Source of the DNA: Escherichia coli O127:H6 str. E2348/69
GTDB lineage: Bacteria; Pseudomonadota; Gammaproteobacteria; Enterobacterales; Enterobacteriaceae
Reading direction: 5' to 3' (one strand)
Length of the DNA: 64,000 nucleotides
Assembly (NCBI RefSeq): GCF_000026545.1
Contig: NC_011601.1
The notes below the pieces were generated by a model, which ran no database searches, was not told the DNA's origin, and worked only from the letters and a program-made list of their open reading frames with translations. Below are positions 9,243 to 18,342 of this stretch, in pieces (positions within the stretch are counted from its first letter, which is position 1; each line of letters begins with the position of its first letter). Both the position numbers and the translations under genes were made by a program.

Positions 9243-9251
9243 TTTAACCAG

Positions 9252-9274
9252 GGCCAGAGAAGTCTGGCCTTTTT
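9252..9274 (+). terminator. Rho-independent terminator after cysG
   Basis: ggccaga-gaag-tctggcc hairpin followed by ttttt, 10 nt after the cysG stop. Confidence 0.75.
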
Positions 9275-9493
9275 CGTTTACAACTCTCTTTATATATTCA
9301 GCAGATAAAAACATAACCCCTTAATAAATATTGTCTGCTAATGGGTTATATTCACCGTTACAGCGACTTACAAAATTAAATCAATCGCTCACTGACGCTA
9401 ATTGAATATTCCTGTATCGTTCTTAATGAGCAGTCTGCTTATATTCATATAATCAATGAATATTAATTAATATATAATACATAGGGAATGTAA

Positions 9494-9661
9494 ATGAACA
9501 AATTTATTAAAGTTGCACTGGTAGGCGCAGTACTGGCTACGTTAACTGCATGTACTGGTCATATTGAAAACCGTGATAAGAACTGCTCTTACGACTACCT
9601 GCTGCACCCGGCAATTTCTATTTCTAAAATCATTGGCAGTTGCGGTCCGACTGCACAGTAA
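9494..9661 (+). CDS. yhfL: Small lipoprotein YhfL, 55 aa
   Basis: ATG at 9494; translation MNKFIKVALVGAVLATLTACTGHIENRDKNCSYDYLLHPAISISKIIGSCGPTAQ with a lipobox (LTAC); below the ORF-track size cutoff. Confidence 0.8.
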   Translation: MNKFIKVALVGAVLATLTACTGHIENRDKNCSYDYLLHPAISISKIIGSCGPTAQ

Positions 9662-9702
9662 GTCTCTGACAGAAATCGGCTAACGCCGGTTTAATTGCCT
9701 GA

Positions 9703-9740
9703 CGCCCTCGGAGTTATCCGAGGGCGTATTTATTTCTGCA
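9703..9740 (+). terminator. Rho-independent terminator after yhfL (at the yhfL/yhfS convergent junction)
   Basis: acgccctcgg-agttat-ccgagggcgt (10-bp stem) followed by atttatttct. Confidence 0.7.
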
Positions 9741-9767
9741 TTCTTTTCGAAAACATCATGCACAAGA

Positions 9768-10853
9768 TTAAATACTGGCAATACTCTCACGCAAAATCCG
9801 CAGCACCGTCTCTTCACCGCTGCGATTCGGGTTAATGCGAATCGCGCAATGTTCGAGTTGTGGATTCGCCTGACGAAACGTTCCGGAAAGTCGATAAAAG
9901 AGCGGCGGGATTTCATATTTCGACTCTGCACCAACCGGGTAAGGCAAGGCACCGAGTTTCTGCGCCTCTTCCAGCACTCTGGCGGCAATCGGCTGATGAA
10001 ACTCCACAATCAATACCTTCGACTGTGCATTGGCAATGACGGCGCTTTTCACTTCAGACACCGCGCCGCCGTTAAGCAAAGCCAGCAACCGTTCAGATAC
10101 TCCCGCCTGCACCGCATGCATCACCGGCGCAAACACCAGCCCACGCAAGACTTCCAGCGCCTGTGCACCCTGAATCTGGCTGCCGCCGGAATAGAGCGTG
10201 GCGCGAATCCGGCTAATAACATCGGCATCGCCTACCACCACACCAACGCCCTCTGGCCCAAACAGCTTGAAGCAGGAGAATGTCGACACATTCGCCCCGC
10301 ATTCGCAGCCGATTCGCGCTACCTTCATCACCGCATAGTTGTCATCGGTTAACGCTGGAACACCTGCCGCGCGCAACGTTGCCAGCACGTCTGCCAGCAC
10401 ATAGCGGTCCTGCGGCTGCTGGCGCGTATGCTGCACCAGCGCGGCATCAGGTTGTTGCTCGTCAACAACCTGCTTCAGTGCCGACAGATCATTGAAATCA
10501 GCCGTAATGAGCGTTAGCCCCATCTGCTCAATAATAACCCGTGTCGTCGGGTAAACAGGCGCGTCATGCACCAGAAGACGCTGCCCCGATTTGAGCAAAG
10601 CCGCCAGTGCCGCACGGATCGCGCCAGTACCCGCGCCCTGTACCAGCGCCGCGGCCTGTGCGTGAAACGCGTCAGCCAGCACCTGTTCCACACGCTGGGT
10701 AATGCGGGGCTGATTTAGCCCCGGCGTTAAGCCCAAATCACCGCAGGTAAGAAACTCGCAGCCAGGAAAATGACGGCAAATCGTGTCCACCAGCGCAAAC
10801 TGCTTTTGCTGCGCCTCAATAAGCGTCAGGCTTTGCAGAGGAAACGTCTTCAT
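9768..10853 (-). CDS. yhfS: YhfS, putative PLP-dependent enzyme of unknown function, 361 aa
   Basis: ORF 9768..10853 (-), 361 aa; recognised as E. coli YhfS by sequence and by synteny with yhfT..yhfZ; function not established. Confidence 0.85.
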   Translation of the reverse strand: MKTFPLQSLTLIEAQQKQFALVDTICRHFPGCEFLTCGDLGLTPGLNQPRITQRVEQVLADAFHAQAAALVQGAGTGAIRAALAALLKSGQRLLVHDAPVYPTTRVIIEQMGLTLITADFNDLSALKQVVDEQQPDAALVQHTRQQPQDRYVLADVLATLRAAGVPALTDDNYAVMKVARIGCECGANVSTFSCFKLFGPEGVGVVVGDADVISRIRATLYSGGSQIQGAQALEVLRGLVFAPVMHAVQAGVSERLLALLNGGAVSEVKSAVIANAQSKVLIVEFHQPIAARVLEEAQKLGALPYPVGAESKYEIPPLFYRLSGTFRQANPQLEHCAIRINPNRSGEETVLRILRESIASI

Positions 10854-10864
10854 AGGTGCCTTCC

Positions 10865-12169
10865 TTAAGCCGGAACGAACAGGCCAAGCCAGTAAAGAAC
10901 ATTCAGCAGGATGCCGGTGATCATTACTGCTACGACCGGTGCCGCCATTTTCTGTACCGGACGGCCCAGGGATTCGTTGAGGAAGTAAATGGCAACCGCG
11001 ATAGAGAATCCGGTATAGCCCGCCATTTTGATTGCTGCAAAGATCGAACCGACCAGCAACGCCACTTCCATCAGCATATTCATGGCGTTACGGATGTTAT
11101 CCGACGCATTACGTACCGACGGGTAGCGCCCCAACCATTTGCCGATCGAACGAAGCAGCAAGACTTCCGCCGAAATAACCACTGCGCCTAATACCGCTGC
11201 AACCATCAGATTCGGCGAGAGATAGCCCACCGCATAAACAAAGGTAAAGCCCGCAACTGCATACACGCCGGTGGCTAACGCGGTGGTGGCAATCAACGGC
11301 ACAAAACCCAGCCCGCGCATAAATTCTGCCAGTGCCGCCTGGTTGATTAGTGTTTGTGATTGTTCCGGCGTTACGCCTGCGGAGTACGCTTTCTCCAGTG
11401 TGAAGATCGACACTTCACTACCGGCGAAAATCTTCATGCTGGCAACGGCAGCAATCAATGCACCCACGATGGCGATATACGGTAAGTTTTTGATAATCCG
11501 TGATGTACGCTCTTCAAACACCGACATACCGCTGGCATCGATATCATTTTCATCACGATGGCGCAGGTCATGAGTTATTGCGATCCCCAGCAGCATCACC
11601 ATGCCAATAAAGATTTCGATGGATTCAGGGTTAAGATGTGGGAAATAGCGCACTACCACCACACGAGTCATCAGTACCACCACGGCGGCGATCAGACTTT
11701 GCTTCCAGCCAAACTGGTAGAAAATCGCCACCAACGGGAACAGTGCAAAAGCTGAAACCACCGGCGAGCTTAATTCCCCCAGGCTACCTAATACATCCAC
11801 CGGTAGCGCGGTCAGCAGCTGGTTTACTGGCAACAGACAGGTGAGGATCAATATTCCCCAGATAGCACCAAGACCAAACGCCATCAGGCTGTTTATCGCC
11901 AGTACGCCGAGGATATCGGTAGGAAGAAAGAGTAACCATGCGTTGAGCAGCCCGGTTTTCAGGGTAAAAGAGATCCCCACCGAGGCCACAAAACCAATGC
12001 TCAGACCAAAAGCGATACTCCCCGCCTCGCGACGGTTCATATAGCCTTCAATCAGTTGCGGCAGGATCGGGCGGATACCGTCATGAAAAACGGCCGCCGA
12101 GCGATGCGCCAGAAGCGATGTCATACCCGTCAGGCACGCCACCACGATAATCTGAATATACAGATCCAT
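10865..12169 (-). CDS. yhfT: YhfT, polytopic inner-membrane protein (putative transporter), 434 aa
   Basis: ORF 10865..12169 (-), 434 aa, highly hydrophobic with many predicted transmembrane segments. Confidence 0.85.
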   Translation of the reverse strand: MDLYIQIIVVACLTGMTSLLAHRSAAVFHDGIRPILPQLIEGYMNRREAGSIAFGLSIGFVASVGISFTLKTGLLNAWLLFLPTDILGVLAINSLMAFGLGAIWGILILTCLLPVNQLLTALPVDVLGSLGELSSPVVSAFALFPLVAIFYQFGWKQSLIAAVVVLMTRVVVVRYFPHLNPESIEIFIGMVMLLGIAITHDLRHRDENDIDASGMSVFEERTSRIIKNLPYIAIVGALIAAVASMKIFAGSEVSIFTLEKAYSAGVTPEQSQTLINQAALAEFMRGLGFVPLIATTALATGVYAVAGFTFVYAVGYLSPNLMVAAVLGAVVISAEVLLLRSIGKWLGRYPSVRNASDNIRNAMNMLMEVALLVGSIFAAIKMAGYTGFSIAVAIYFLNESLGRPVQKMAAPVVAVMITGILLNVLYWLGLFVPA

Positions 12170-12180
12170 AGTCGTGCCTT

Positions 12181-12534
12181 TTATTTCAGATGGTTAATCA
12201 GCATCGGAATCGCGTGTTCAACGTGCTCAACGGAAAGGCCAAACGCCACTTTTCCTTCAGCGATCATTTTGGCGATATGTTCGTCTTTCGCTTTAATGCC
12301 CGGCTTGGCAATGGTGCAACTTTTGTTATAGCCAATCACCGCGATAGCAATCGACAAGGCCGCGCCCGCACCGGTATTACACGCGCCGATGTAGTAATCC
12401 AGTTGCCCGGATTTCACTTTCATTGCCGCTTCCATGTCGTTGTGAATGAAAACTTCAAAACAGCCAGGAGCCGTCGCTTCAATGGTTTTTTTAATCTGCT
12501 CACGCTGTAAGCCTGCAACGCCAATCTTTTTCAT
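12181..12534 (-). CDS. yhfU: YhfU, small conserved protein of unknown function (about 117 aa from the MKKIGVAG start)
   Basis: ORF track gives 12181..12573 (130 aa); the start at 12534 is chosen by gene spacing (stop of php at 12545) and is uncertain. Confidence 0.75.
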   Translation of the reverse strand: MKKIGVAGLQREQIKKTIEATAPGCFEVFIHNDMEAAMKVKSGQLDYYIGACNTGAGAALSIAIAVIGYNKSCTIAKPGIKAKDEHIAKMIAEGKVAFGLSVEHVEHAIPMLINHLK

Positions 12535-12544
12535 GAGTCTGTCC

Positions 12545-13423
12545 TTATTGGAAAAATTGAGAGGGATTTTCACGTAACATCACATCCACATCGGCCTGAC
12601 TGAATCCTGACTGGCGCAATTGCGGAATAAAAGTGGTCAATAAAAAGTCATAGCCATAACCACCGTTGGCTTTTAAATGAGAGCGCCGCGTAATATCCAT
12701 CGACAGCATGACGCGATTCAGCACCCCACGGTCACGTAGCGCATGGAGCATCGCAATGCGCTTTTCGTCCGGGTAGTAACTGTTCTTGCCGATGGTGTCG
12801 AACTGCACATACGCGCCGAGATCGATCATCTTCAAAATGTTGTCGAGATTGTCTTTCAGATCGCAGTGGCCGACGGTGACGCGCGAAAGATCAACTCCGT
12901 GGGCTTGCAACAGAGCCAGTTGCTCCAGCCCCATCGTGCTGAACGACGTATGCGTGGAGATCGGGCGTCCGGTCTGGTTATGTGCCAGCGCGGCGGCAAT
13001 AAACACCTTCTCTTCCAGCGACGTAATCTTCCCTTCGCTGGAGCCGATCTCCGCGATAATTCCGGCTTTCAGGTCAGTGCCATCGATACCCTGCTCAATT
13101 TCATCGACCATCTCCTGCGCCAGTTCCTGCACGCTGCGGGTCGCCACATGTTCCGGGAAAAACGCGTCCTGGTAATAACCGGTACAGGCCACCACGTTGA
13201 TCCCGGTTTCGCGCATTACATCGAGCATAAATTGCGCATTGCGCCCCATGTAACGGTTGGTCATCTCAATCACATTACGCACGCCCCGGGCCATCAGGTC
13301 GTTCATCTCCTGGCAAATGAACGCATACTGATCAAGGCGGCAGTCCACGTTGTTTTTAAAGCCGGAAAGATCAATATGCAGATGCTCATGGGCGAGCGTG
13401 TAGCCCGTCGGATCAAAACTCAT
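12545..13423 (-). CDS. php: Phosphotriesterase homology protein Php (amidohydrolase-superfamily binuclear metal hydrolase), 292 aa
   Basis: ORF 12545..13423 (-), 292 aa; N-terminal HxH metal-ligand motif ([11 protein letters not shown]) typical of the amidohydrolase/PTE fold. Confidence 0.9.
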
Positions 13424-14646
13424 AGGGTGTCTCCTGCAAACCGGAAGGAGGAAAGAAAAGAGCGACCATTTTGTGGCGGTGGCGCACGGAAAAATTCACA
13501 CACGGTAGCCCCCACATCAGAAAGCGTGGTGCGCACACCGAGCTGCGTAGCGACCAGTCCTTGCTGATAAACCAGCACTGGCACCACTTCGCGGGTATGG
13601 TGGCTGTGACCAATGGTCGGATCGTTACCGTGATCCGCCATCACGACCAGGCAATCATCTGGCTGCATCGCCTCAACAAGCCGGGCAAGGTTACGGTCAA
13701 CGACCTGCAAACGTTCGGCATAACGTGCGACGTCTTCTGCATGACCAGCGAGGTCGGTTTCCTGGATATTGGTACAAATAAACGCCGTCGGATAGGTGTT
13801 AAATTCGTTGAGGGTGATATCCATAATCCGCTGGCTATCCACCAGGTTTTGCCAGCTCACGCCATAAGGATTGCTGACGATATCTGCCACCTTACCCACC
13901 AGCACGGTTGGCACGCCCGCTTCATACAGTTTTTGCGGCACCTGCACTTTTTCATCGACACCGTAGCCCATATGTACGACCTGGAAACCGTTGTCATAGG
14001 CGCCAGAACGCGGCGCATTGATGCCAATAAAGCGCCCTTCTTTGCTTTCTGCGGCATCGAGGATGCGCTGGCTGTCGGTTAACAGGCCACCAAATGTAAT
14101 GACCCGACCGACCTGTACCTGCTCACGCACGATACGACCCATTTTGATTGCGTCGTCAAAAGAGATCACAGAGAGATTGGCGGTGATGTTATAGACCTGG
14201 CCTAAATCCGCCTCGAGATTATCGCCAATCGCAACCGCCTGATTGACCCACAGAAATTGCAGATCATCGCCACGACGCTCAACCTGCCAGCCAGCGGAAA
14301 CTAATGCCTGCTCAACACGGTCAATCACATCACGAAAGGGCATCCGCAGCGGCGGTAATGGGCGCGTACCTAAAATCTCCTGATGCCCCATAAAGGTATC
14401 GCCACCTTCATGTTGCAGCTCTGCCACGCCCCAGGTTGCGGAGTCTGACGGCTGCATATCGCCAGGCGCATAACCCAATGCGTTGATTAGCCCCAGCGTC
14501 TCCAGCGTTGGTAGCTGCAAATGCGGCAACTGGCTCAGGATATGACCACAGGTATTCGCCCCGGCATCCTGCGGACGCACCAACGTGACATCTTTCATTG
14601 CCCCTACGCCAAAGCTATCAATCACTAACACCACAAATCGCGCCAT
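13420..14646 (-). CDS. yhfW: YhfW, phosphopentomutase-like / alkaline-phosphatase-superfamily metalloenzyme, 408 aa
   Basis: ORF 13420..14646 (-), 408 aa; stop overlaps the php start (translational coupling). Confidence 0.85.
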
Positions 14647-15810
14647 TTACGCCTCCAGAGGGTTGCCGAGGCTGTCATAACGACCAACTATTTCTGGTTC
14701 GCCATGGTGAATACCGGACACCAGCACCACATCGCTACGGGTGATAAAAATCTGCGTGCGAAAACAGAGCACCACTGCACTACTTACCGGATGCTCGCCT
14801 GCCAGCGGCAGGGTGTAGTCGATACTGCTGTCATCAACGGCGTTGAGATATGTTTCAGTAATTCTTTGATTTTCTGGCGTAAACACCAGCGCATGTTGCG
14901 CGTGACCACGACGGTAGTAACCGCCGCCGTAGCAGTAGCTGTCGCCACGGAAATGATGGGAGATTTCACTTAACCAGAGCATCGCGATACGTTCAGGCTG
15001 ATCGCCCTGTTGATTTGCCGGAATAGTACCCGTCAGCGCATGACCGGGTTCGGTATGAGTCACACCGTATTCCGCCAGCAATGGCAGCGACGTGCAGCTG
15101 GTCGCTGAAGGCGCGTTCAGTTGCTCAATCGCAATACCAGATTTCGCCAGTTGATCCCGTGCTTGTACCAGCGTGTGAAGATTCGGTGTCGGCAAAACTT
15201 TCCCGGCAGCCTCATCCCAAAGCAGGCAAGGGAAATGGGTAAGTCCCGCCAAATGTAGCCCCGGCAGATTCTGGATTTCAGCAACCACCTCGTGCAGCGA
15301 ATGCTGTACAAAACCGCTCTCCTGCCCCGGATAAAGAAAATCATCGTCGCTATAAACTTTGAGCAGCACAGACTGCACACGTCCGGTCTTCACCGCTGCC
15401 GCAGAAATTTCCCGCGCTTTGTCGAGGGTAAACACAGTGATGACGTCGGTTCCCTGTTCAACGGCGTCAGAAACCTGATGACAAGGGATTTGTACCAGAT
15501 GCCCCTGATGCGCTACCGGCAAACCGGCGCGGCGCATGACTCGCGCCTCTTTGTAATCCACCGCCACAATGCCGCTGTAGCCCAGAGCCAGCAGTTTTTC
15601 TGCCAGCCACGGATTACGACCGAATTGTTTGGTCATCAGATACAGTTCAATGCCGTAAAGCCGCGCCGTCTCAATCAGCCGCTTGCCGTTTTCCAGAACT
15701 TGATCCACGTCGATCACCCAACTGTCCGGGGCGATCTTGCCCTGCTGCCACAAACTTAGTGCGGCGGAAATCAGCGCCGGGTTCTGGCGTTTCAATGCTT
15801 CTACAAACAT
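14647..15810 (-). CDS. yhfX: YhfX, alanine-racemase-fold (PLP-binding TIM barrel) protein of unknown function, 387 aa
   Basis: ORF 14647..15810 (-), 387 aa; abuts the yhfW start. Confidence 0.85.
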   Translation of the reverse strand: MFVEALKRQNPALISAALSLWQQGKIAPDSWVIDVDQVLENGKRLIETARLYGIELYLMTKQFGRNPWLAEKLLALGYSGIVAVDYKEARVMRRAGLPVAHQGHLVQIPCHQVSDAVEQGTDVITVFTLDKAREISAAAVKTGRVQSVLLKVYSDDDFLYPGQESGFVQHSLHEVVAEIQNLPGLHLAGLTHFPCLLWDEAAGKVLPTPNLHTLVQARDQLAKSGIAIEQLNAPSATSCTSLPLLAEYGVTHTEPGHALTGTIPANQQGDQPERIAMLWLSEISHHFRGDSYCYGGGYYRRGHAQHALVFTPENQRITETYLNAVDDSSIDYTLPLAGEHPVSSAVVLCFRTQIFITRSDVVLVSGIHHGEPEIVGRYDSLGNPLEA

Positions 15811-15893
15811 CTTGTTGCCTCGTTTCTGTTCCTTGAATTAAATATTCATTTTTTTGAATATTTAGGTTGTACGACGTGGATTTATCGGGAGCT

Positions 15894-16256
15894 TCAAACC
15901 TCTTCGTTAGCAGCCATCCATAATCCATAAAGGTTGGCCAGCAAATAGCCTTCTTCACACGGGTTAACTTCCAGTGCAAATTCCTTCAACAACACCTGAT
16001 GCAATTGCACAACGGCTTGCCAGTGGCTGGATTGCGCCAGTTCCGCCAGCAATTCATCATCCAGCGGCTCTATTTCTTCACCACGGCGACTGCGCATCAG
16101 TGCACTCGCCATATGTGTCATCGCCATCGTTCCTTGCTCACTGCGCACCGGTAGATGGCACTCTGTTTCCAGTACATTGACGACCTGCATCATGCCTTTG
16201 CAAATGTCCTTATCAATAACGCCTGCATCGCAAAGCAGGTTGAGTCTGGTTTCCAT
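15894..16256 (-). CDS. yhfY: YhfY, small protein of unknown function (about 120 aa from METRLNLL)
   Basis: ORF track 15894..16298 (134 aa); the internal Met start at 16256 is chosen to avoid overlap with the yhfZ stop at 16273; start uncertain. Confidence 0.7.
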   Translation of the reverse strand: METRLNLLCDAGVIDKDICKGMMQVVNVLETECHLPVRSEQGTMAMTHMASALMRSRRGEEIEPLDDELLAELAQSSHWQAVVQLHQVLLKEFALEVNPCEEGYLLANLYGLWMAANEEV

Positions 16257-16272
16257 ATCAGATGCCTTTCGT

Positions 16273-17178
16273 TTAATAACTGGGTTCCTGTTCCCCACTG
16301 ACTACTCGCTGTTGATGAGCAAGCAGGGCATGTTTATCAACAACTGCACGCAGCAGTTGTTGCATTGGGTAATCATCGACTCGCGTCAGGACCACGGCTT
16401 CGGTGGCCTGTAAAAATCGCGGATCGTCTGTGAGCGGCGTCGCTTCTAATCCCAGCATGGTCAGTTCGTTTTCCGCCACTACGTTCCAGATAACCGCGTC
16501 AACATCGCCTTTAACAATGCGTTGTAAACTCTCGTGATAAGAGAGATCGACTCGTTCCACATCACTATCGCCAAAAAAGACATCGGTCATGATTTTCTGA
16601 TCCGCCGAACGGTTATCCAGCCCCACGCGCTTCACGTTTGCGGACTCGCCTTTACGGCAAATCAACTGGTGCTCGCCAACGTAGGTATGCGGTCCCAACT
16701 CCAGCGCGAGGCATAATCCTTTTTGCGTGAGATAACTTTCCGCCGCCAGTCGCGAAACCACCGCCATGTCATACACGCCATTAAGTAAACACTCCACGCG
16801 AATATCCGCGCCGCGCATATGCGCATAGTAAAAAGGAATGCCATCAAACTGGGCTTTCAATCCGCTCGCCAGGCCTTCGTACAAACGGGTATAGGGCAAG
16901 GGCATCGCACATACCACGTTGTTGATATCCACATGAGTCAGCAATGCGTTGTTATCCATCTCGACCAGATAACTGCCATTGCGCCCACGGCGTTCAATCC
17001 GTATCGCTCCGCTTGATTCCAGCGTTTTCAACGCGGCCTGCGTCAGGCCAACCGATGAACGGCATTCAGTTGCCAGCTCATCTATGGTTTTCAGTCGATT
17101 ACCGCACTTTTCACCCAACAAATAACGGGCCAGTGTCGTGATAACGACGCCTTCTTTTTTGATAAACGTTCGACGCAT
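16273..17178 (-). CDS. yhfZ: YhfZ, putative DNA-binding transcriptional regulator (N-terminal winged HTH), 301 aa
   Basis: ORF 16273..17178 (-), 301 aa; N-terminus TLARYLLGEKCGNRLKTIDELATECRSSVGLTQAALKTLESSGAIRIERRG resembles a GntR-like winged HTH; first gene of the yhfZ..yhfS same-strand cluster. Confidence 0.85.
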   Translation of the reverse strand: MRRTFIKKEGVVITTLARYLLGEKCGNRLKTIDELATECRSSVGLTQAALKTLESSGAIRIERRGRNGSYLVEMDNNALLTHVDINNVVCAMPLPYTRLYEGLASGLKAQFDGIPFYYAHMRGADIRVECLLNGVYDMAVVSRLAAESYLTQKGLCLALELGPHTYVGEHQLICRKGESANVKRVGLDNRSADQKIMTDVFFGDSDVERVDLSYHESLQRIVKGDVDAVIWNVVAENELTMLGLEATPLTDDPRFLQATEAVVLTRVDDYPMQQLLRAVVDKHALLAHQQRVVSGEQEPSY

Positions 17179-17295
17179 AATATATTTTCAATAAAATGAA
17201 TGTTTATATCTTCAGGAATTTGAAGATAAGGCGCAACAGCGAGATGTGGAAACGGCGAGGCGCTTCACATTTTTTCGGATTATTGCAAATGAGGA

Positions 17296-17322
17296 TAAAA
17301 AAACCGGGTTTCCCCGGTTTTT
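17296..17322 (-). terminator. Rho-independent terminator after trpS (symmetric hairpin flanked by A and T runs)
   Basis: aaaaaaa-ccgggtttccccgg-ttttt; read on the minus strand this is a hairpin followed by a U-run immediately after the trpS stop (17338). Confidence 0.8.
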
Positions 17323-17337
17323 GGCATTAATGTTAAA

Positions 17338-18342
17338 TTACGGCTTCGCCACAAAACCAATCGCTTCGTACACCGCTTTTAGCGTACGGGAAGCGTGTGC
17401 GCTGGCTTTTTCTGCGCCGTCTTTCATCACCTGTTGCAGGAAGGCTTCATCATTGCGGAAACGGTGGTAACGTTCCTGCAATTCAGTCAGCATACCGGAA
17501 ACGGCATCAGCCACTTCACCTTTCAGATGACCATACATCTTGCCTTCGAACTGTTTTTCCAGTTCCGGGATGCTCTGGCCCGTTACCGCAGAAAGGATAT
17601 CCAGCAGGTTGGAAACGCCCGCTTTGTTCTGCACATCGTAGCGAACTACCGGCGGCTCGTCGGAGTCAGTGACCGCGCGTTTGATTTTCTTCACGACCGA
17701 TTTCGGATCTTCCAGCAGGCCGATAACGTTATTGCGGTTATCGTCAGACTTGGACATTTTCTTGGTCGGCTCCAGCAGCGACATTACGCGCGCGCCAGAT
17801 TTCGGAATAAACGGCTCTGGCACCTTAAAGATATCGCCGTACAGCGCGTTGAAACGCTGGGCGATATCGCGGCTCAGTTCCAGGTGCTGTTTCTGGTCTT
17901 CACCCACCGGCACCAGATTAGTTTGATACAGCAGGATGTCCGCAGCCATCAGCACCGGATAGTCAAACAGACCAGCGTTGATGTTCTCGGCATAACGCGC
18001 AGATTTATCTTTAAACTGCGTCATGCGGCTCAGTTCGCCGAAGTAGGTATAGCAGTTCAGTGCCCAGCCTAACTGCGCATGTTCCGGCACGTGGGACTGA
18101 ACAAAAATGGTGCTTTTCTCAGGATCGATACCACAAGCCAGATACAACGCCAGCGTATCCAGCGTCGCTTTACGCAGCTTCTGTGCATCCTGGCGCACGG
18201 TGATCGCGTGTTGGTCAACGATACAGTAAATGCAATGGTAGTCATCCTGCATGTTTACCCACTGACGCAGCGCACCCATGTAGTTACCAATGGTCAATTC
18301 ACCTGAGGGCTGTGCGCCACTAAAAACGATGGGCTTAGTCAT
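17338..18342 (-). CDS. trpS: Tryptophan--tRNA ligase TrpS, 334 aa
   Basis: ORF 17338..18342 (-), 334 aa; class-I aaRS HIGH-type motif (TIGNYMG) and KMSKS motif present. Confidence 0.96.

Follow-up and report, generated by a model that had tools for sequence, protein, structure and literature searches.

The yhfZ-yhfS gene cluster of Escherichia coli E2348/69: a possible phosphotransferase-linked catabolic operon for an amino-bearing sugar derivative

What do the yhf genes of Escherichia coli do? The cluster yhfZ-yhfY-yhfX-yhfW-php-yhfU-yhfT-yhfS ranks among the larger blocks of E. coli genes that still lack a function; its products include Php, bacterial namesake of the phosphotriesterase-related family, and four of them have crystal structures. 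It was investigated here in a 64-kb window of the chromosome of E. coli O127:H6 strain E2348/69, the numbering of which is used throughout; the stretch analysed (9600–17400, 7.8 kb) is 100 % identical to that chromosome. The RefSeq annotation places eight coding sequences between 9768 and 17178, all on the minus strand, and the list of open reading frames (ORFs) concurs, in agreement with an earlier reading of the window made from its letters alone (the sequence-only reading), which had described eight intact genes within these limits. That reading also suggested that the parts list, which proves to be right, points to the uptake and breakdown of an amino- or phosphate-containing small molecule. 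The comparisons made here support this and lead to a narrower proposal, given slightly less than an even chance: that the cluster is a substrate-inducible catabolic operon, repressed by YhfZ and linked to the phosphotransferase system (PTS), for an amino-bearing, sugar-like compound that is processed as a phosphate ester.

The annotation of the locus is decades old, and structural genomics has already solved four of its products, therefore it is no discovery in itself; the sequence-only reading had rightly called it a known conserved hypothetical locus. New in this analysis are the recurrence of the cluster in other bacterial groups with shuffled gene order, the division into core and accessory genes, the identity of YhfY as a PTS regulatory domain (PRD) protein, the fold of YhfU, the internal duplication of YhfT, the linkage to HPr and Enzyme I (EI) genes, the operator palindrome, and the selection data. 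No study of the substrate or regulation of the yhfZ-yhfS genes was found in the full-text literature searched, which largely excludes subscription journals, and there the genes are mentioned in gene lists and screens only: yhfZ was picked up in a screen for resistance to the lacritin peptide N-104, and the other mentions are a note on a bacterial interspersed mosaic element (BIME) attenuator and a DNA pull-down list. The names are still generic in NCBIfam (June 2026) and in the PDB titles of 4KBX, 4J8L, 2OZZ, and 1BF6/4LEF. To our knowledge, the operon has no functional assignment, and the earlier statement that it has no established substrate or pathway stands.

The eight genes are tightly packed, as had been claimed, with intergenic gaps of 16 nt (yhfZ-yhfY), 83 nt (yhfY-yhfX), 0 nt (yhfX-yhfW), −4 nt (yhfW-php), 10 nt (php-yhfU), 11 nt (yhfU-yhfT), and 11 nt (yhfT-yhfS). 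Of two start/stop overlaps that had been proposed, that of yhfW and php is a 4-nt ATGA overlap when the junction is read directly, and these are the sole overlapping pair; the junction of yhfX and yhfW reads TAAATG, therefore these two genes abut and do not overlap. All eight products are full length when compared with family models or solved structures, and the domain assignments of the sequence-only reading (a regulator, enzymes, and a transporter) are all correct by family models and Pfam.

The chemistry of the cluster is most readily approached through its enzymes. YhfX (14647–15810) is a fold-type III (alanine-racemase-fold) pyridoxal 5′-phosphate (PLP) enzyme with the Pfam domains Ala_racemase_N (PF01168) and YhfX-like_C (PF21279), solved as 4KBX under the title 'uncharacterized protein YhfX'. 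The invariant residues in the family alignment include K61, H103, C195, and the motif EPGH, and Lys61 is the probable PLP lysine. The nearest named family is the ornithine racemase Orr (NF040742), at 29.2 bits against a cut-off of 480, which places YhfX outside that family.

YhfW (13420–14646) is a phosphopentomutase-like metalloenzyme of the alkaline-phosphatase superfamily. It scores 736 bits with its own model, NF009049, which NCBI names 'phosphopentomutase', and 140.8 bits with the true deoB model (TIGR01696), which has a cut-off of 341.2, and it is therefore not a member of the DeoB family. When aligned to the Bacillus cereus phosphopentomutase (PPM; 3M8W), it retains all of the motifs DS, DT..GH.E, D..GH, ADHGNDP, and HTRE; residues D10, T/S84, D298, H302, D338, and H339 are conserved in 26–27 of 27 homologues, with Ser at position 84 in two of the 27. 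YhfW thus keeps the core of the alkaline-phosphatase type, with the ligands of the binuclear metal site and the nucleophilic Thr, as in DeoB and the B. cereus enzyme. Unlike these, its cap domain (approximately residues 100–235) is diverged and aligns poorly to PPM, and its matches to PPM structures reach approximately 105 bits, mostly in the C-terminal half.

Php (12545–13423) is an amidohydrolase-fold hydrolase of the phosphotriesterase (PTE) family with a binuclear metal centre. It matches 1BF6/4LEF in the structure-sequence search and fits the family (PF02126, COG1735) in its TIM-barrel profile, His-x-His motif, bridging carboxylate, two further His residues, and Asp. Across 24 homologues, the binuclear-site residues H12, H14, E125, H158, H186, and D243 each show at least 95 % conservation. 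Its closest characterised relatives are lactonases and phosphotriesterases (SsoPox, approximately 135 bits; 3PNZ, 112 bits).

YhfS (9768–10853), solved as 4J8L under the title 'uncharacterized protein YhfS', is a fold-type I PLP enzyme and an accessory member of the cluster. Against the Cys/Met gamma-lyases (methionine gamma-lyase, TIGR01328) it scores 43.6 bits, far below the cut-off of 549.7, and it shares with the Cys/Met lyases only the fold-type I core. K196 and a DDNY motif are conserved in the YhfS family, and Lys196 is likely to be the PLP lysine. The active-site comparison that the sequence-only reading had called for therefore finds catalytic residues retained in YhfW, Php, YhfX, and YhfS. 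Each enzyme falls short of the equivalog cut-off of its nearest named family while the catalytic machinery of the superfamily is kept, and the locus belongs to no characterised pathway.

The first gene encodes the regulator. YhfZ (16273–17178) is a GntR-type winged helix-turn-helix protein with the Pfam domains HTH_41 and YhfZ_C, and with 372.6 bits to the YhfZ_full model NF041241 (cut-off 260; residues 4–301) it is a member of that family. The C-terminal YhfZ_C domain, solved as 2OZZ ('hypothetical protein', covering residues 74–301), is taken to be the ligand-binding part. Three candidate YhfZ operators were found. O1 (17207–17228, with the 20-nt pattern at 17208–17227) lies upstream of yhfZ and has perfect 8-nt arms, TATCTTCA-N6-TGAAGATA, with the pattern ATCTTCA-N6-TGAAGAT. 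O2 (17184–17203) is 24 bp from O1 and ends 6 nt before the yhfZ ATG. O3 (15839–15864) is within the 83-nt gap between yhfY and yhfX and has perfect 10-nt arms, TAAATATTCA-N6-TGAATATTTA. With one mismatch allowed, ATNTTCA-N6-TGAANAT matches only these three sites, each in yhf regulatory DNA, within the 64-kb window, against an expectation of 0.12, and no shuffle out of 100 gave as many.

The same element recurs beyond E. coli. In the fetched loci, the density of the TTCA-N6-TGAA core is 2.98 per kb within yhf regulatory regions and 0.05 per kb elsewhere, an approximately 60-fold difference. Extended sites are present upstream of yhfZ in Citrobacter, Klebsiella, Buttiauxella, Cedecea, Yersinia, Vibrio, Photobacterium, and Sebaldella, and a paired site with the 24-bp spacing of O1 and O2 is found in the loci of Escherichia, Citrobacter, Klebsiella, Buttiauxella, and Cedecea. 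O3 is retained in those of Escherichia, Citrobacter, Klebsiella, and Trabulsiella and absent from that gap in Buttiauxella and Cedecea. Firmicutes loci do not have a motif of the TTCA-N6-TGAA type and presumably use a different operator site. The palindrome is a phylogenetic footprint of an operator, for which a GntR-type dimer encoded by the first gene, yhfZ, is the obvious candidate for binding. The footprint supports transcription from upstream of yhfZ, together with autoregulation, and the position of O3 suggests a second regulated promoter or entry point for yhfX-yhfS in the Escherichia group. The description of a regulator-led operon therefore holds in that the regulator gene is first, and is refined in that, with a second operator in the yhfY-yhfX gap, the cluster is possibly two co-regulated transcription units.

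No recognisable Shine–Dalgarno sequence precedes yhfZ (17179–17200). The sole promoter-like match near yhfZ was not used, as transcription from it would start inside the ORF. Given these two observations and the end of O2 at 6 nt before the ATG, it is possible that the yhfZ transcript is leaderless or has a very short leader.

The link to the PTS comes from the two proteins that the sequence-only reading could describe only as small. YhfY and YhfU are indeed small, and can now be placed. In YhfY (15894–16256, 120 aa), the E. coli protein matches the Pfam PRD domain (PF00874) with an E value of 0.004 over model positions 2–84 of 90; across the family, 15 of 28 members match it at E ≤ 0.001 and 26 of 28 at E ≤ 0.1, and precomputed Pfam assignments also place PRD on the YhfY homologues in loci L086, L089, and L090. 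His48 and Arg55 are invariant in the family alignment. A match to the EF_0829 model TIGR03582 (E 2.4e-6) is below the cut-off. On these profiles YhfY is best described as a stand-alone PRD protein, with the invariant His as candidate for phosphorylation. The start of yhfY is ambiguous: the longest ORF runs from a GTG at 16298 (134 aa) and overlaps the end of yhfZ, versus the RefSeq ATG at 16256 (120 aa), and the homologues align from the shorter start.

YhfU (12181–12534, 117 aa; DUF2620) has an RpiB/LacAB-like fold, the RpiB/LacAB isomerases being its top fold matches. Cys52 and Thr/Ser54 are invariant, in the loop G-x-C-[NE]-[TS]-G-x-G-A-A, and by alignment offset they fall at the inferred position of the catalytic Cys and Thr of RpiB. 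The detectable sequence similarity to RpiB is confined to residues 28–63, around the Cys loop; the Pfam LacAB_rpiB model (PF02502) is matched over residues 32–61 only (E 0.16), which does not amount to a family-profile match, and YhfU is approximately 30 residues shorter than RpiB. The YhfU profile found only chance-level matches among PDB sequences, to fumarase and RpiB (E 0.17–0.4), and only DUF2620 proteins among the best 120 listed in a large protein database. One DUF2620 member matches the Pfam family Gly_rich_SFCGS (E 8e-4), and because the profile search listed DUF2620 proteins only, the link of YhfU to the SFCGS family rests on this single Pfam match. YhfU was also considered as a canonical PTS EIIB protein, which is not supported, as RpiB scores much higher.

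YhfT (10865–12169, 434 aa; PF10797) is a polytopic permease with an internal duplication, in which residues 7–144 correspond to residues 229–377 (hhalign probability 80 %, E 1e-5). In the structure comparison it has no solved structural relative and no EIIC-like fold, and it thus does not qualify as a PTS permease of the EIIC type; neither YhfT nor YhfU matches an NCBIfam family at E ≤ 0.001.

Conservation of the cluster was investigated through YhfT, a small family with 304 representatives in a set of 1.84 billion proteins. When one genome per species was scanned with a 12-sequence YhfT alignment, relatives were found in 289 species, from which 80 loci were fetched and searched by tblastn, with all eight E. 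coli proteins as queries. The cluster occurs in Enterobacterales, Vibrionaceae, Fusobacteria (Sebaldella), Clostridia, and Bacilli with the gene order shuffled, for example Z-Y-php-U-T-X-W in Vibrio and Z-(Y)-U-T-php-(S)-X-W in Firmicutes; the genome-context comparison proposed earlier thus shows retention in Enterobacterales and beyond, across several phyla. Clustering persists for YhfT homologues of 26–35 % identity, in metagenome and genome contigs (L085–L090). Wherever both genes occur in the fetched loci, yhfU is directly upstream of yhfT, even with the other genes shuffled. The recurring core is of seven genes (yhfZ, yhfY, yhfX, yhfW, php, yhfU, and yhfT), and the eight-gene set that had been described is therefore intact in E2348/69 and is not the core across bacteria: yhfS is confined to the Escherichia/Citrobacter/Klebsiella/Buttiauxella group and a few Firmicutes and Fusobacteria, and the clusters of Yersinia, Vibrio, and Photobacterium are without it, as are several of those in Clostridia.

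Within E. coli, at least 80 % of the cluster stretch is present in 5058 of 5426 complete genomes, and it is absent from approximately 7 %, including O157:H7. The ratio of non-synonymous to synonymous substitution rates (dN/dS) is 0.03–0.13 for all eight genes in comparisons with E. albertii, Citrobacter, and Klebsiella, with yhfU and yhfT the most constrained. All eight are thus under purifying selection, and the locus is therefore a functional unit and no relic, and its presence in most E. coli, its clustering across phyla, and the low dN/dS together show that it is no chance arrangement.

Genes that adjoin the cluster in other species give further indications. An HPr gene is on the same strand 0–54 nt past the last cluster gene in four loci (L077, L079, L081, and L085), and a co-oriented EI gene is 5 nt past it in L073; all five loci are of the Firmicutes type. 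With a PRD protein in the core and co-oriented HPr or EI genes within 54 nt of the cluster, there is genomic linkage to the general PTS. A nagB gene, above the cut-off, is co-oriented 28 nt past the cluster in Thalassobacillus, and another is 229 nt past the cluster in Melghirimyces. Genes for amidase-signature proteins are between yhfT and yhfS in two Fusobacteria loci (L060, 11347–12378; L084, 1410–2447), such a domain is fused to YhfT in Clostridium citroniae (AFDB G5HJH7), and a formamidase-like gene is near yhfT in L070. These amidases hint at an amide bond in certain versions of the substrate. A gene for a Cof-type HAD (sugar) phosphatase follows yhfW in L089 and L090. No kinase gene was found in any version of the cluster examined.

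In three Vibrionaceae loci (L050, 4258–7153; L059; L070), genes for a lactose/cellobiose-type PTS IIB-IIC-IIA and for a DUF7916 protein, which is faintly DeoC/LacD-like, adjoin the yhf cluster. This module was considered as a clue to the substrate and found uninformative; its side and orientation vary, and it is possibly independent.

From these observations a flow through the proposed operon can be put together, the steps of which are all inferred, with the chemistry taken from family membership. YhfZ would hold the operon off through the conserved palindrome, at two sites at the yhfZ promoter and one before yhfX, until an inducer appears. YhfT, as a permease of new fold, would then import the compound with its constant partner YhfU, and YhfU and YhfY would connect the system to the phosphoenolpyruvate:sugar phosphotransferase relay (EI/HPr). 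This connection might either phosphorylate the substrate on entry or report the status of the PTS, or transport, to YhfZ; phosphorylation on entry would explain the presence of a phosphomutase in a cluster without a kinase. Php is predicted to hydrolyse an intermediate, either at a ring (lactone or lactam) or at an N-acyl bond, YhfW to shift the phosphate by a phosphopentomutase mechanism via an enzyme phosphorylated on Thr84, and YhfX to carry out PLP chemistry at the amino-bearing carbon, which may be epimerisation or racemisation, or beta-elimination or deamination. YhfS would add an optional, lineage-specific PLP step, and the products would enter central metabolism via enzymes encoded elsewhere. 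Since both PLP folds normally act on alpha-amino acids and the relatives of Php hydrolyse phosphorylated sugar lactones, the favoured substrates, with low confidence and by analogy with the D-glucosaminate pathway of Salmonella, are 2-amino-2-deoxy sugar acids and their lactones; N-acyl amino sugars also belong to the favoured class and are kept in play by the nagB genes and amidases that accompany the cluster.

Among known systems, such an operon would work most like the PTS-linked operons for sugar derivatives in which a permease is accompanied by a hydrolase for the phospho-product (Ula, Lmo2620-type, and dga), from which it differs in its transporter, its free-standing PRD protein, and its GntR-type regulator. 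In the D-glucosaminate pathway of Salmonella (dgaABCDEF), uptake by the PTS is followed by a PLP-dependent ammonia-lyase acting on an amino sugar acid 6-phosphate, and then by 2-keto-3-deoxy-6-phosphogluconate (KDPG). The same logic is proposed for yhf, with PTS-linked uptake and a PLP enzyme whose substrate is a phosphorylated 2-amino-2-deoxy sugar acid. The dga operon has a canonical mannose-family EIIABCD, a SelA-like PLP enzyme, and an aldolase of its own, and phosphate from the PTS makes a kinase needless. Unlike dga, the yhf cluster has a permease of new fold, a fold-type III PLP enzyme, a PTE-fold hydrolase, a phosphomutase, and no aldolase, and YhfS has no match to the DgaE-type model in NCBIfam at E ≤ 0.001.

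The COG1735 lactonases for phosphorylated sugars (Lmo2620 of Listeria, which is 3PNZ; Bh0225 of Bacillus; and the Mycoplasma family NF045706) share the PTE fold and binuclear centre of Php. Their genes belong to PTS-linked clusters for sugars, and the lactones that they hydrolyse carry a phosphate beforehand. With NF045706, Php reaches 96.5 bits where the cut-off is 630, which places it outside the phospho-furanose lactonases, and we know of no activity of Php on phosphorylated-sugar lactones. The Bgl, Mtl, and Ula systems, which are canonical PTS permeases whose regulators contain PRDs, resemble yhf in their use of a PRD domain whose His can be phosphorylated and of a small alpha/beta protein with a Cys beside the permease. 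Likewise, as in canonical PTS operons, HPr or EI genes are attached to some yhf clusters, and a hydrolase acting on the phospho-product would parallel UlaG. The front end resembles that of the EF_0829/AHA_3910-type clusters, which are also uncharacterised and have a stand-alone PRD protein, a small protein with a Cys/Gly loop, and one or more membrane components. The genes of the EF_0829-type cluster are for a PRD protein, a glycine-rich SFCGS protein, small membrane proteins, a PLP enzyme, and an amidohydrolase. The yhf cluster differs in that the matches of YhfY and DUF2620 are below the curated cut-offs and in that its membrane part is the single 434-aa YhfT.

How far does the link to the PTS reach? 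A stronger form of the proposal is that YhfT, YhfU, and YhfY make up a previously unrecognised PTS-coupled uptake system, in which phosphate would pass from HPr to His48 of YhfY, to Cys52 of YhfU, and on to the substrate at YhfT. This is unlikely, though not negligibly so; the EF_0829/SFCGS clusters would then be a sister branch, and, if true, it would add a new family to the PTS and supply the long-missing substrate route for Php, YhfW, and YhfX. Several observations weigh against a PTS-linked operon for an amino-bearing sugar derivative, in this form or the more general one. There is no EIIA gene, HPr or EI genes are attached in just 5 of 88 loci, and PRD proteins usually regulate rather than pass phosphate to sugars. 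Eight Yersinia species lack yhfW, and Enterovibrio lacks php, yhfZ, and yhfY, so that the steps of the pathway are not all obligatory. The alpha-amino acids on which the PLP folds usually act fit an amino sugar acid and not a plain amino sugar, whereas nagB points the other way, and every chemical step is drawn from the families of the enzymes. The absence of yhfW is clean in the eight Yersinia loci (L037, L040–L044, L047, and L048), and the gene is present in Y. nurmii (L039).

The same catabolic role can be imagined without PTS transport, with YhfT as a secondary carrier, YhfU as a soluble isomerase of the RpiB type, and YhfY modulating YhfZ as an input for catabolite control; the phosphate would come from an unlinked kinase, or the compound would be imported already phosphorylated. 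This alternative is somewhat improbable but deserves serious consideration, since it would account for the RpiB/LacAB isomerases as the top folds of YhfU, with the Cys-x-Thr/Ser-Gly loop kept, and for the lack of an EIIC-like fold in YhfT and of an EIIA gene. It also gains from periplasmic acid phosphatase genes that follow yhfT in Pluralibacter and in Enterobacter sp. BIGb0383, both of which lack yhfS, and from a CUT1-type ABC sugar transporter that precedes YhfT in L085. However, the similarity of YhfU to RpiB covers residues 28–63 of a protein some 30 residues shorter, the strict adjacency of yhfU and yhfT is unusual for a soluble pathway enzyme, and the extra HPr and EI genes in Firmicutes clusters are hard to explain via catabolite control alone. 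A pathway for the salvage of nucleoside-like or pentosyl compounds is clearly less probable. In it, YhfT would import a ribosyl conjugate, Php would open or deacylate the aglycone or amino-acid part, YhfW would be a true mutase from pentose 1-phosphate to pentose 5-phosphate, and YhfU would be a pentose phosphate isomerase. The nearest relatives fit, as YhfW is closest to phosphopentomutase with the whole catalytic set kept and YhfU to ribose-5-phosphate isomerase B, and a PNP_UDP_1 nucleoside phosphorylase gene is 14 nt downstream of the most distant YhfT examined (L092, 27 % identity). In the Yersinia that lack yhfW, the housekeeping DeoB might substitute, and the reaction of YhfW may therefore be near that of an ordinary phosphopentomutase, which would favour this pathway if DeoB does cover the same reaction there. 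On the other hand, the core cluster has no phosphorylase, nucleosidase, or kinase, YhfW is well below the deoB cut-off with a diverged cap, which is the substrate domain, and two PLP enzymes are left unexplained.

A still smaller probability is given to the degradation of a small N-acyl amine or cyclic amide without a sugar, for which Php would be an amidase or lactamase, YhfX would racemise the released amino compound, YhfS would transaminate or cleave it, and YhfW would act on a phosphate or phosphonate. The amidase would resemble mammalian PTER, an amidohydrolase that has lost its orphan status as a hydrolase of N-acetyltaurine and N-acetyl-beta-alanine (PMC11374699, PMC12873775, PMC13311154). 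Like Php, PTER is of the PTE family and was long an orphan, and its modelled metal contacts, which include H26, H28, and E169 (PMC11374699), echo H12, H14, and E125 of Php, a comparison made by reported positions only. Unlike Php, it acts alone and not in an operon, and carries a eukaryote-specific helical insertion (PMC12873775). The recurrence of amide hydrolases at YhfT (L060, L084, the YhfT-amidase fusion, and the formamidase-like gene in L070) and the ornithine racemase as nearest named relative of YhfX are consistent with such a route, but the PRD protein, HPr and EI, the RpiB-like protein, the phosphopentomutase-like enzyme, nagB, and the Cof-type phosphatase all indicate sugar-phosphate chemistry. 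Lastly, it is very improbable that the cluster is a cryptic or decaying relic without a current function in E. coli. Its absence from some complete genomes, including O157:H7, the lack of a phenotype or inducing condition in the literature searched, and the lack of an obvious Shine–Dalgarno sequence before yhfZ would suit a relic; eight intact ORFs with low dN/dS, invariant catalytic residues, and the conservation of cluster and operator across phyla would not.

The upstream boundary of the yhf unit is the intrinsic terminator of trpS (17299–17322, minus strand; AAAAACCGGG-GAAA-CCCGGTTTTT and a T run), directly after the trpS stop codon. The downstream boundary is a hairpin with a perfect 11-bp stem (9702–9727; ACGCCCTCGGAG-TTAT-CCGAGGGCGT) between the convergent yhfL and yhfS. 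This hairpin is a clear terminator for yhfL and a possible one for the yhf transcript, the termination of which here is inferred because the T tract is on the yhfL (plus) side only. Internal terminator-like matches are weak, and in a scan of the locus the counts of promoters and terminators were no higher than in shuffled sequence.

The interval between yhfL and trpS (9243–9767 and 17179–17337) is a hotspot with two modules, yhfS-Z and frlABCDR (fructoselysine). Enteropathogenic E. coli (EPEC) E2348/69 has yhfS-Z without frlABCDR, O157:H7 SS17 (L093) has frlABCDR, with frlD as a pseudogene, without yhfS-Z, and K-12-type genomes have both, in which case the query splits between positions 138 and 168. 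Over 9600–17400, identity within E. coli is at least 99 % in 95 genomes, 95–99 % in 4729 (many near 95 %), and 90–95 % in 601. In comparison with E. albertii, the synonymous rate (dS) is 1.31 for yhfT versus 0.22–0.71 for the neighbours. The unusual divergence of 9600–17400 within the species suggests a mosaic history or recombination.

If the proposal of a PTS-linked catabolic operon is true, the function missing from this block of genes is a PTS-linked route for an amino-bearing sugar derivative, by way of an unclassified family of transporters. The analysis makes an orphan operon more tractable, with a predicted repressor site, two residues of interest in His48 of YhfY and Cys52 of YhfU, and a short list of substrate classes. 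The locus is in most E. coli, including this EPEC strain, and not in O157:H7, and it may therefore mark a difference in nutrient niche.

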